A stretch of DNA of 23,256 nucleotides from Corallococcus exercitus (GTDB lineage Bacteria; Myxococcota; Myxococcia; Myxococcales; Myxococcaceae): the NCBI RefSeq assembly GCF_013116615.1, contig NZ_JABFJW010000124.1, one strand, 5' to 3'. The stretch's first letter is position 1. Every line of letters starts with the position of its first letter. The translations under genes were made by a program, and so were the position numbers. Below the pieces are notes generated by a model. The model saw only the letters and a program-made list of their open reading frames with translations, searched no databases and was not told where the DNA came from. This document shows positions 14,516 to 16,619 of this stretch, piece after piece.

Positions 14516-15511
14516 TCAGACGATGCGCTGCAACTCCTGCGTCAGCATCTCCTCCAGGTGCCGGATGTTCCGGTAGACGAGGCACCGGTAGCTGGAGACA
14601 TCGAAGCGCAATTCCTTCACGTCGCGAACAAGCATCAGGGTGGGCTTGCCACGTCCCCATGCATAGCCCACCTCCAGATAGACATTGGGGTTCGCCAATG
14701 ACAGGTCCGCGATGACGACCTTCGCGGTGTCAATACGGTCCCGGATGCGCTGGATGATGGGGCCATCGAAGACGGCCTGGTCCACCCGCTCGCACAGGAG
14801 CCCGGCCGCCTTCACGGGGTTCAGGATGCCGTAGTGGTAGGTGTCCTCCAGCTCCGGCGCGAAGGGCATTGCCACGAAGGCGTGGGGCTTCTCGTTGGAG
14901 TTCGCGCCCGCGCTCGCCATGGGCGGCGCCTGGACGAAGCGGGACGTCCGCCGCACGCGGAAGCCCGTGGCCCCCATCAGCGGCTCCACGCCCGGCGTGA
15001 GTCCCAGCCCCAGCGCGATGGCCTTGCGCAGCCGCTCCACGCGCTTGGGGTTCAGCTCCACCACCGTGATGCGCTTGAGGTCGCGCGGCCCGCTGCCGCG
15101 CTGGAACGCGTCCACGAAGCCGCCCACCAGGGCCAGCACGGCCTCGTCCTCGTCCAACCCGTAGTTGGGGCCGTGCACCGTGCACGCGAGGTGACGCACC
15201 TCGTGCCGGGGCTCCAGGAGCTGGAGCGCTCGCACGGAGAACTGGCGGATCTCGTGGTAGCCAAACTGCCGCAGGCGCACCGTGCCCAGGAAGAGCACCA
15301 GCGGAGCCCCCAGGCTCCTGCGCGTGTCGATGAAGCGGTGGTCCCCAGGGAGCAGGTCGAAGGCGTCCATGGCCACGCCCGCCGCCTCCAGCCGGCGCGA
15401 CACCGCGCCGTCCGCCCCGTGGAAGCCCTGCGCGTACTTCAGCAGCACGGCGTCCGCGGGCGTCTCCCCCACGTCTCCCAGGTCCACCACGACGTCCAGC
15501 GTGTCTCCCAT
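14516..15511 (-). CDS. Two-domain protein: N-terminal Macro (ADP-ribose binding/processing) domain fused to a C-terminal nucleoside 2-deoxyribosyltransferase-like (NDT/TIR-like Rossmannoid) domain
   Basis: ATG at 15511. The N-terminus LDVVVDLGDVGETPADAVLLKYAQGFHGADGAVSRRL…LLPGDHRFIDTRRSLGAPLVLFLGTVRL…EVRHLACTVHGPNYGLDEDEAVLALVGGFVDAF follows the Macro pattern (GDIT…DAIVNAAN…GGGV…AI; …pGe..iT.g..L…VIHtVgP; …IAFPaIStGiyGyP…eAa). The C-terminus HAFVAMPFAPELEDTYHYGIL…IDTAKVVIADLSLANPNVYLEVGYAWGRGKPTLMLV carries the NDT-superfamily signature (…aD.vva.ld…N..v.fElGyA.a.gKPv…). There is no signal peptide or TM segment. Confidence 0.75.
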   Translation of the reverse strand: MGDTLDVVVDLGDVGETPADAVLLKYAQGFHGADGAVSRRLEAAGVAMDAFDLLPGDHRFIDTRRSLGAPLVLFLGTVRLRQFGYHEIRQFSVRALQLLEPRHEVRHLACTVHGPNYGLDEDEAVLALVGGFVDAFQRGSGPRDLKRITVVELNPKRVERLRKAIALGLGLTPGVEPLMGATGFRVRRTSRFVQAPPMASAGANSNEKPHAFVAMPFAPELEDTYHYGILNPVKAAGLLCERVDQAVFDGPIIQRIRDRIDTAKVVIADLSLANPNVYLEVGYAWGRGKPTLMLVRDVKELRFDVSSYRCLVYRNIRHLEEMLTQELQRIV

Positions 15512-15672
15512 GGGCCGGGGACTGTAGGGCGTCCCGGTCCGCCCACGCCATCCCCTGCATCCGTCGCCGTGCGTCAGGAAGGGCGAAACACAGACGTGAC
15601 AGCAGCGGCCAATCCCTGTTCAATGACGCCCTTGCGCCTGCCTGGCTGTCTTTCAGGCCACCCTCATGCCGC

Positions 15673-15690
15673 CTGTGAAGCGCTTCACAG
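15673..15690. promoter_or_regulatory. Perfect CRP/FNR-family binding-site palindrome (TGTGA-N6-TCACA) upstream of the tandem cNMP-binding protein gene
   Basis: cTGTGAagcgctTCACAg is a perfect 18-bp palindrome at 15673-15690, ending ~27-36 nt before the candidate starts (TTG 15717 / ATG 15726). It lies in the 205-bp divergent intergenic region shared with the Macro-NDT gene. Confidence 0.5.
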
Positions 15691-15725
15691 TTTCCGGCGG
15701 GGCGGCCCGGTAGCATTTGGGCACC

Positions 15726-16619
15726 ATGTCCCTGTTCGCGCGCCTGCAGGCCCTGCTGTCCGCCCACCCGTCCGCCCCGGCCACCTCCGCCGGACAGACG
15801 CCCGCGACCTCCGCCGCGCCCACGGCGGCAGGCGCTCCGACGGATGCGGAAGCTGCCCCCGCGCCTCCGCCCGTCTGCACGCGCTACCTGCCCGCGGGCC
15901 AGATCGTCGTGCGCGAGGGCGACCCGGGCCATTCGATGTTCGTCGTGCTGGAGGGCCGCGTCGCGGTGCTGCGCGGCGGCGACAACGGCGCCAACACGGA
16001 GGTCGGCCGCCTGGGCGCCGGCGAGTTCTTCGGCGAGCTGGCGCTGCTCACCGGCACGCAGCGCACCGCCACCATCGTGACGGTGGAGGACGCAGTGCTG
16101 CTGGAGCTCACCCAGGCCGGCGTCCGGGAGCTGGGCAAGGACTACGGCGTCAAGGGCGAGCAGATGCAGGTCACCGCCCGGGAGCGCCTGCTCGCGGACG
16201 CGCTGCGCAGCAACCCGCTCATCGCCGCCCTGCCCCCGGAGGTGCAGCACGAGCTGGGTGACGCCTTCGTCCCCTGCACCGTCCCCGCCGGAGAGACGCT
16301 GCTCACCCGGGGCCAGCCGGGCGACGCGCTCTACGTCCTCATCCGGGGCCAGTGCGAGGTCTTCCACACGCACGGCGACGGCCGCCAGTCCCCCTACCCC
16401 ACGCTGGAGGAAGGCGCCCTGTTCGGGGAGATCTCCCTCTTGCGCAGCCGGCTGGCCACCGCCACCGTGCGCACCGTGACGCCCTGCACGCTCCTCAAGC
16501 TGGAGCGAGACGTGTTCAAGAAGGCCTTCCTGGGCCAGCCCGACCTGCGCGGCGCCCTGGTGCGGCTGGGCCTGGAGCGGCTCAAGCACACGATGGAGGT
16601 CATGGGCGGGCCAACGTAG
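15726..16619 (+). CDS. Tandem cyclic-nucleotide-binding (CNB/CAP-effector) domain protein with an Ala/Pro-rich N-terminal region
   Basis: ATG at 15726; the ORF track starts at TTG 15717. There are two complete CNB domains with phosphate-binding-cassette motifs: GEFFGELALLTGTQRTATIVTVED and GALFGEISLLRSRLATATVRTVTP, each preceded by the usual beta-roll context (…IVVREGDPGHSMFVVLEGRVAV…; …LLTRGQPGDALYVLIRGQCEV…). There is no HTH, kinase, TM or other output domain. Confidence 0.85.
   Translation: MSLFARLQALLSAHPSAPATSAGQTPATSAAPTAAGAPTDAEAAPAPPPVCTRYLPAGQIVVREGDPGHSMFVVLEGRVAVLRGGDNGANTEVGRLGAGEFFGELALLTGTQRTATIVTVEDAVLLELTQAGVRELGKDYGVKGEQMQVTARERLLADALRSNPLIAALPPEVQHELGDAFVPCTVPAGETLLTRGQPGDALYVLIRGQCEVFHTHGDGRQSPYPTLEEGALFGEISLLRSRLATATVRTVTPCTLLKLERDVFKKAFLGQPDLRGALVRLGLERLKHTMEVMGGPT

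Follow-up and report, generated by a model that had tools for sequence, protein, structure and literature searches.

A perfect 18-base-pair (bp) palindrome, CTGTGAAGCGCTTCACAG, was found at positions 15673-15690 of a 23,256-nucleotide (nt) stretch of Corallococcus exercitus DNA (contig NZ_JABFJW010000124.1), which is referred to here as the window. It precedes a gene for a protein with two tandem cyclic-nucleotide-binding (CNB) domains, and is probably the operator of a CRP-subfamily dimer that, together with a cyclic nucleotide, would activate this gene from a class II position. The evidence consists of the rarity of the site, its conservation, the spacing of a -10-like hexamer in a promoter without a -35 hexamer, a regulator with CAP-type residues in related genomes, and the recurrence of the motif at the promoters of the regulator and of a paralogous CNB gene. 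Judged from sequence comparison, the most probable binder would be a 226-residue Crp/Fnr protein of the 90%-identity cluster P0235. The promoter elements and the two flanking genes are as follows.

15636..15645, + strand: GCCTGCCTGG box, unexplained, present in all Corallococcus orthologous promoters
15673..15690, no strand assigned: proposed operator for a dimeric CRP-subfamily regulator, unique in the window, half-sites conserved
15691..15710, + strand: spacer from the operator to the -10-like box, conserved in length (19-21 nt; 20 nt in 10 of 14 species) and not in sequence
15711..15716, + strand: -10-like hexamer TAGCAT (TAGCGT in some species), with T, A, G, C and the final T invariant in the alignment
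15722..15726, + strand: transcription start zone predicted from the -10-like box
15726-16619, + strand: tandem-CNB gene, 297 residues, two Pfam cNMP_binding matches (5e-47)
14516-15511, - strand: divergent gene with a sub-threshold match to Nuc_deoxyrib_tr (nucleoside 2-deoxyribosyltransferase, NDT)

The CRP core TGTGA-N6-TCACA is present as TGTGAAGCGCTTCACA at 15674-15689, where two inverted half-sites separated by 6 bp match the consensus at all 10 positions. The dyad falls between 15681 and 15682, and the palindrome stops at 18 bp, with c15672 and t15691 non-complementary. The first-pass annotation of this DNA had described perfect half-sites, a 6-bp spacer and symmetric flanks, all of which were confirmed at 15673-15690. 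Its distance of about 30 nt to the start codon has to be corrected to 35 nt, with the ATG at 15726.

The window has a G+C content of about 70%, and the same annotation had considered perfect sites improbable by chance in such GC-rich DNA. This was borne out by the counts. One perfect TGTGA-N6-TCACA is present in the window against 0.01 expected from dinucleotide-preserving shuffles (1 of 100 shuffles contained a match). A base composition of A 0.147, C 0.354, G 0.351 and T 0.148, taken over 421 kb of myxobacterial DNA, predicts 1.6e-7 chance sites per position, which amounts to about 1.6 in a genome of 10 Mb. The 421 kb themselves contain 16 perfect sites against 0.07 expected, all of them in the promoter of the CNB gene and its orthologs or in the promoters of two CRP-type regulator genes. 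The regulator-gene loci in this collection had been picked for the regulator, and their sites are thus a test of predicted autoregulation and no unbiased survey. When the motif was relaxed to two mismatches, the window gave 5 matches against 4.8 expected. Weak second sites in the window were therefore rejected, and only the perfect site stands out. Another symmetric palindrome, TGCGATCAGTTTCGCA, occupies 3616-3631, within an intergenic region of lower GC content (3541-3730) that precedes a gene without a Pfam match (3731-4765). Each of its half-sites departs from the CRP core by one change, symmetrically placed, and another regulator could bind there.

The conservation of the palindrome was assessed by comparing orthologous loci of 13 additional Corallococcus genomes and a metagenome-assembled genome (MAG); the nearest ortholog of the CNB protein, from the same species group, is 96% identical. 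Every locus carries the site at the same place, and both half-sites are conserved in 14 of 14 promoters. When 12 promoters were aligned, TGTGAA.C..TTCAC.GT was invariant, whereas the four central bases differed among species (GCGC, GCAC, CCGC, GCAT or CCAT) and the flanks had drifted. The site of C. praedator and MAG PMG_225, GTGTGAACCATTTCACTG, has two substitutions that disrupt pairing (C1 to G, A17 to T) and an asymmetric centre. These changes are non-compensatory and thus speak for recognition of two half-sites by a protein and against a hairpin in RNA or DNA. The earlier view that the site is non-random is thus upheld, the site being kept while spacer, flanks and upstream neighbour change.

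The upstream neighbour was informative about which gene the site belongs to. The first-pass annotation had suggested that the divergent gene might be controlled from the same site. In C. llansteffanensis, C. sicarius, Corallococcus sp. CA053C, C. praedator and the MAG, an additional alpha/beta-hydrolase-like gene is inserted between the NDT-like gene and the CNB gene, and in these five the distance from the site to the CNB ATG is unchanged. Because the site keeps this distance despite the changed neighbour, it belongs to the CNB gene and not to the divergent gene, which does not support the suggested co-control. The GCCTGCCTGG box lies 28-32 bp upstream of the palindrome, the distance differing by about 4 bp from one group of species to another. 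The box may represent another regulatory element, of uncertain membership in the system.

That the palindrome is no CRP-family site at all, and instead arose by chance, forms an RNA or DNA hairpin, belongs to a repeat element or serves an unrelated regulator, is hardly credible. Any perfect palindrome can fold, and the predicted RNA fold of 15655-15730 does include it as a 7-bp stem. This fold is no better than those of shuffled sequences (z = -1.7; 13 of 200 shuffles fold as well), and neither an Rfam match at E<=1 nor a terminator-like feature was found at the palindrome. Together with the non-compensatory changes, this led to the rejection of an RNA element or hairpin. Chance and repeats have against them the expectation of 0.01 per window and the lack of copies in the window or the loci beyond the orthologous sites and the regulator promoters; a repeat or mobile element was rejected as no other copy occurs in the window. 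Chance, hairpin and repeat are effectively excluded.

The sequence between the site and the gene resembles a class II promoter. The -10-like box starts 29.5 bp after the operator dyad, and the distance from the end of the core to the A at its second position is 22 bp in 10 of 14 promoters, including that of the window, 23 bp in three and 21 bp in one. Class II CAP promoters have been described as the only ones in which 22 bp separate the site from the second -10 base (PMC10187061). No -35/-10 pair was found in a consensus promoter scan and no -35 hexamer at 16-18 bp from the box, the hexamer at 17-bp spacing being CAGTTT with a 1/6 match. If the box spans -12 to -7, transcription would start at about 15723 and the dyad would lie at -41.5. 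The box is always followed by the ATG after 9 nt, which vary by species and contain no Shine-Dalgarno sequence. We infer a leader of 0-4 nt, that is, a leaderless or nearly leaderless mRNA, and an activator-dependent class II promoter, with the -10 element and the start themselves predicted. The first-pass annotation had placed the site over the core promoter and proposed repression or class II activation. The geometry, with TAGCRT at 22 bp (21-23 bp) and no -35 hexamer, is that of the latter.

The same geometry is present at a second, independent promoter that is physically linked to a regulator gene. On a contig labelled C. terminator (L031), a Crp/Fnr-type gene lies directly upstream of a paralogous tandem-CNB gene, and the intergenic region contains the site GTGTGAAGGCGTTCACTG (also given as TGTGAAGGCGTTCACT) followed by TACGTT at 22 bp. 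In M. stipitatus (L036) the site is TGTGATGGGCTTCACT, again with TACGTT at 22 bp, and in Pyxidicoccus caerfyrddinensis (L037) it is TGTGAAGCGCTTCACT with TACAGT at 23 bp; in both, the regulator is directly upstream of the tandem-CNB paralog. By a hand calculation from the 421-kb composition, TAnnnT has a frequency of about 0.003 per position. The same exact offset in two independent promoters is therefore unlikely by chance.

Some further features of these loci were recorded. The L031 regulator is 90% identical to one from 'unclassified Myxococcus', 87% to that of M. stipitatus and only 71-77% to those of other Corallococcus, which may reflect mis-assignment of the contig or horizontal acquisition of the locus. 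At L037, positions 1232-5672 form a compact cluster of an FHA-GAF-cyclase, a 336-residue CNB protein, the CRP-type regulator and the 298-residue tandem-CNB paralog. The divergent CNB gene of this cluster, as annotated, contains a near-perfect site at its 5' end (TGTGAAGCCGTTCACT, 3838-3853), so its start may be mis-called. The syntenic place in M. faecalis (L027, 3468-4001) is without the regulator gene, whereas M. stipitatus L036 has both regulator and site, and no site with <=2 mismatches occurs in the 500 bp scanned before the M. faecalis tandem-CNB paralog. The paralogous CNB gene pair of Corallococcus sp. RDP092CA (L029/L030) was considered too and rejected, no site being present.

Repression by the same CRP-type regulator would give the opposite output: the dimer would occupy the place of sigma region 4 and the -35 element and block RNA polymerase, and the CNB protein would be expressed when cyclic nucleotide is low. 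We regard this as a clearly less probable outcome that still deserves some weight. The site and the -35 region of the inferred promoter overlap, and occlusion of polymerase by CRP-family proteins is general knowledge. Repression by CAP is also mentioned in PMC10187061. In addition, the tandem sites at the regulator's own promoters (see below) have no class II offset to an obvious -10 element, so several modes are possible. Against this, the lack of a -35-like hexamer at 16-18 bp from the box leaves little basal promoter to repress. The distance of 29.5 bp from dyad to -10-like box varies by no more than 1 bp among 14 species and is found again at the paralog promoter. This fits stereospecific, helically phased activation and is unneeded for occlusion.

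A regulator encoded nearby was sought and not found. A phmmer search with the CRP proteins of E. coli and Mycobacterium tuberculosis (Mtb) against the open reading frames of the window and the first 24 loci gave no full CRP-type protein at the Corallococcus loci, and among all 18 window genes Pfam detected a LuxR-type response regulator only and no CRP-type protein. The candidate was traced via the paralogs of the CNB protein. It combines PF00027 (cNMP_binding) with a C-terminal PF13545 (HTH_Crp_2), and its family is 70-90% identical across Myxococcus, Pyxidicoccus, Corallococcus, Stigmatella, Hyalangium and Archangium. Cluster P0235 includes the C. exercitus members P0242 and P0250, among them that of strain SDU142, the source of the ortholog locus L002. 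Its other taxa are C. coralloides, C. exiguus, C. interemptor, C. aberystwythensis, C. carmarthensis, C. macrosporus, C. caeni and unnamed strains, and at least 12 Corallococcus taxa besides C. exercitus have the regulator. Both regulator and site were found in C. exercitus, C. coralloides, C. exiguus, C. interemptor, C. aberystwythensis and Corallococcus sp. RDP092CA.

The nearest solved structure to the regulator is Mtb CRP (E 2e-34, full length), followed by 4BYY, 4CYD and 3R6S, which we take to be GlxR of C. glutamicum, and then by E. coli CAP. GlxR is known to read TGTGA-N6-TCACA. The same motif is read by CAP and Mtb CRP (PMC10187061). When the candidate was aligned with CAP and Mtb CRP, its recognition helix was T-R-E-S-(V/T)-N-K, as compared with S-R-E-T-V-G-R in CAP (R180-E181...R185) and S-R-E-T-V-N-K in Mtb CRP. 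The cAMP contacts G-E...R-S are also kept in this alignment: G71, E72 and R82 are invariant, and S83 is present in the myxobacterial proteins. The R-S cassette suggests cAMP as the predicted ligand.

The promoters of the regulator itself also contain the motif. C. exercitus SDU142 (L035) and Corallococcus sp. M7 (L034) have two sites in tandem ahead of the regulator gene (5880-5918), namely CTGTGAA(C/G)CGGCCCACAA with one mismatch and the perfect GTGTGAAGGCGTTCACAC, whose starts are 23 bp apart; downstream of the regulator lie an FHA-GAF-cyclase gene and a kinase-receiver-cyclase gene. M7 has a second paralog (L033) with two perfect sites, again 23 bp apart (5902-5940), in a 161-bp region shared with a divergent kinase-AAA-GAF-cyclase gene, and the next gene at this locus is preceded by two weaker sites at 6757 and 6780, once more 23 bp apart. 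Such fixed pairing suggests cooperative or tandem occupancy. The motif predicted for autoregulation was present in 3 of 3 regulator loci examined, and the regulator is likely to be autoregulated. A binder of the cyclic-nucleotide-receptor type and a look at the CRP/FNR-family regulators of the genome had both been proposed at the outset; the 226-residue protein in the nearest genomes, a CAP-like CRP factor with the same motif at its own promoter and with adjoining cyclases, agrees with that proposal.

Corallococcus forms fruiting bodies and is expected to possess MrpC, the CRP-like developmental master regulator of Myxococcaceae, whose gene adjoins mrpAB. MrpC could then be the binder, and the CNB gene a development-induced MrpC target, which we think quite improbable. 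MrpC of M. xanthus comes from the same bacterial family, is itself a dimeric CRP-family protein and shares the palindromic TGT-N10-ACA frame with the site. Its ChIP-seq (chromatin immunoprecipitation sequencing) consensus TGTYN8RAC(A) is an imperfect palindrome in this frame and matches the E. coli CRP motif in TOMTOM (PMC4320627). When the site was compared with this consensus, TGT and ACA fitted, whereas position 4 and its mirror did not. In the site these are the CAP-type G and C (TGTG/CACA), invariant in 14 species, and MrpC prefers Y and R (TGTY/RACA) (PMC4320627). Moreover, a different CRP paralog with CAP-type reading residues bears the exact motif type at its own promoter. That candidate does not lie at an mrp-like locus, its neighbours being cyclases, a polyketide synthase (PKS) gene and an amidase gene. 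An mrpAB operon is named in PMC10187061, where MrpC is described as controlled by synthesis and phosphorylation.

Several points weigh against class II activation of the CNB gene by the candidate regulator. The regulator was seen in the genomes of the closest relatives and not in the window's own strain, and at least two CRP-type paralogs are present in at least one Corallococcus genome, so that the site is not assignable to one of them. The orthologs of the CNB gene in Pyxidicoccus, Citreicoccus and Myxococcus (64-66% identity) are not preceded by such a site, and these genera do possess the regulator. This indicates that the link is genus-specific and not an obligatory feature of the CNB gene. 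At the promoter, TAGCAT matches TATAAT at 4 of 6 positions and is called a -10 element from its conservation and position, the consensus promoter scan reports nothing, and a site overlapping the -35 region could also repress. Finally, binding by the regulator, the transcription start, activation over repression and the nucleotide sensed are predictions from sequence.

The regulated protein consists of a conserved N-terminal helix, an Ala/Pro-rich linker and the two tandem CNB domains, and domain searches gave no DNA-binding or catalytic domain. Autoregulation by the CNB protein was rejected for lack of a DNA-binding domain. Among solved structures, the regulatory subunits of PKA (RI-alpha) come closest to the protein (E about 1e-24); orthologs are annotated as 'cyclic nucleotide-binding domain-containing protein', and JGI labels relatives 'cAMP-dependent protein kinase regulator'. 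Residues 1-52 read MSLFARLQALLSAHPS, followed by the linker, and they contain no RRx[SA] inhibitor motif, dimerisation/docking domain or other Pfam match. The protein thus looks like a stand-alone nucleotide receptor or buffer and would not be a PKA-R member. The first 12 residues are MSLFARLQALLS, and the initial codon run ATGTCCCTG is conserved even in Pyxidicoccus. The phosphate-binding cassette of the first domain, CNB1, is GELALLTGTQRTAT with Arg-Thr (protein residues ~100-115), and that of the second, CNB2, is GEISLLRSRLATAT with Ala in place of the canonical Arg (protein residues ~232-247). An Arg-Thr cassette is associated with cGMP selectivity in PKG and CgrA. With Arg-Thr in CNB1 and no cassette Arg in CNB2, the two domains may differ in ligand or be partly degenerate.

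In the proposed mechanism, the cyclic nucleotide that loads the regulator would come from class III cyclases, several of them encoded next to regulator genes. The loaded dimer would bind TGTGA-N6-TCACA centred about 41.5 bp upstream of the start, in place of the missing -35 element, and would recruit and activate RNA polymerase at the -10 box TAGCAT. The transcript would begin 0-4 nt before the ATG and encode the PKA-R-like tandem CNB protein. A receptor of cyclic nucleotides would then itself be induced by cyclic-nucleotide signalling and could serve as effector or buffer.

The promoter was compared with known systems. It shares with E. coli class II CAP promoters centred at -41.5, such as galP1, the TGTGA-N6-TCACA core, the 22 bp to the second -10 base and the absence of a usable -35 element, and Corallococcus also has a dimeric cNMP-binding regulator whose reading residues are R-E...R/K. 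It differs in its setting of about 70% G+C, in a regulator that is about 29% identical to CAP, in the -10 hexamer TAGCAT and in the predicted near-leaderless mRNA. The target here is a cyclic-nucleotide-binding protein and not a catabolic operon, and the start and the activation are predicted. Mtb CRP (Rv3676), the closest solved relative of the regulator, has in common with it the R-E-(T/S)-V-N-K helix and the TGTGA-N6-TCACA motif, and both organisms are high-GC bacteria with many class III cyclases and several cNMP-binding proteins. They belong to different phyla, Actinomycetota and Myxococcota, and the myxobacterial regulator has paralogs and is linked to cyclase and tandem-CNB genes. GlxR of C. 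glutamicum is a comparable system alongside Mtb CRP.

In Rhodospirillum centenum the CRP-type regulator CgrA is encoded beside cyclase genes in the gcyB-gcyC-cgrA operon, as is the case for the candidate regulator. CgrA binds cGMP, has a perfect TGTGA-N6-TCACA in its own promoter region and comes from a host that forms resting cells (PMC10187061). Its cassette is R-T and senses cGMP, whereas that of the myxobacterial regulator is R-S and cAMP-like; R-T is found here in CNB1 of the target. The regulated protein itself shares two tandem CNB domains with PKA RI-alpha, from which it differs by the absence of a docking domain and an RRxS/A site and by a CNB2 without the canonical cassette Arg. Two tandem CNB domains are also shared with CbpB of M. 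xanthus, which is said to have been described by Kimura et al. in 2005 as a protein with two cAMP-binding domains.

The site and its promoter are a fresh instance of a textbook mechanism, and their value is therefore that of an entry point and not of a new principle. Effects of cAMP and cGMP on myxobacterial development have been known since the 1970s. A literature search gave no TGTGA-type CRP regulon described in myxobacteria other than that of MrpC, and according to a 2025 review only one of many putative M. xanthus cAMP/cGMP-binding proteins has been identified experimentally (PMC12288465). The present data provide an entry point into this poorly known network, with operator, promoter layout and candidate protein defined. 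The site joins three orphan classes of component into one testable regulon: a non-MrpC CAP-type regulator, adjacent cyclases and PKA-R-like tandem-CNB proteins. There is also an indication of regulon rewiring, as the gene is without the site in Myxococcus and Pyxidicoccus, where the regulator-adjacent paralog carries it. More speculatively, and with a good deal of doubt, Myxococcaceae might possess a self-contained, as yet undescribed cyclic-nucleotide circuit. Its parts would be class III cyclases, some with Ser/Thr kinase, FHA or GAF domains, an autoregulated non-MrpC CAP-type regulator and class II-activated PKA-R-like tandem-CNB proteins, which could be a buffer with negative feedback or a eukaryote-like kinase regulatory subunit. 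Such a circuit, if true, would supply the missing receptors for the developmental effects of cAMP and cGMP.

The remaining observations concern other genes of the window. The divergent gene had been called 'Macro-NDT' in the first-pass annotation. Its Nuc_deoxyrib_tr match covers residues 252-301 with 24.5 bits against a Pfam cut-off of 28.8, and neither a Macro domain at E<=1 in Pfam nor an NCBIfam match was found; the N-terminal 200 residues are without assignment. The name is thus reduced to a sub-threshold NDT. The gene at 1942-3540 (- strand) encodes a peptidoglycan-hydrolase-type protein with LysM and a C-terminal domain like that of VgrG3 of the type VI secretion system (T6SS), and the gene at 190-1836 (+ strand) a protein of 548 residues with a biopterin-dependent aromatic amino-acid hydroxylase domain. 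The 761-residue open reading frame at 4810-7095 (- strand) matches the complete set of Major Vault Protein domains (MVP_shoulder at 3e-45, Vault, Vault_2, Vault_3 and Vault_4) and encodes a bacterial homolog of this protein, which forms the vault shell in eukaryotes.

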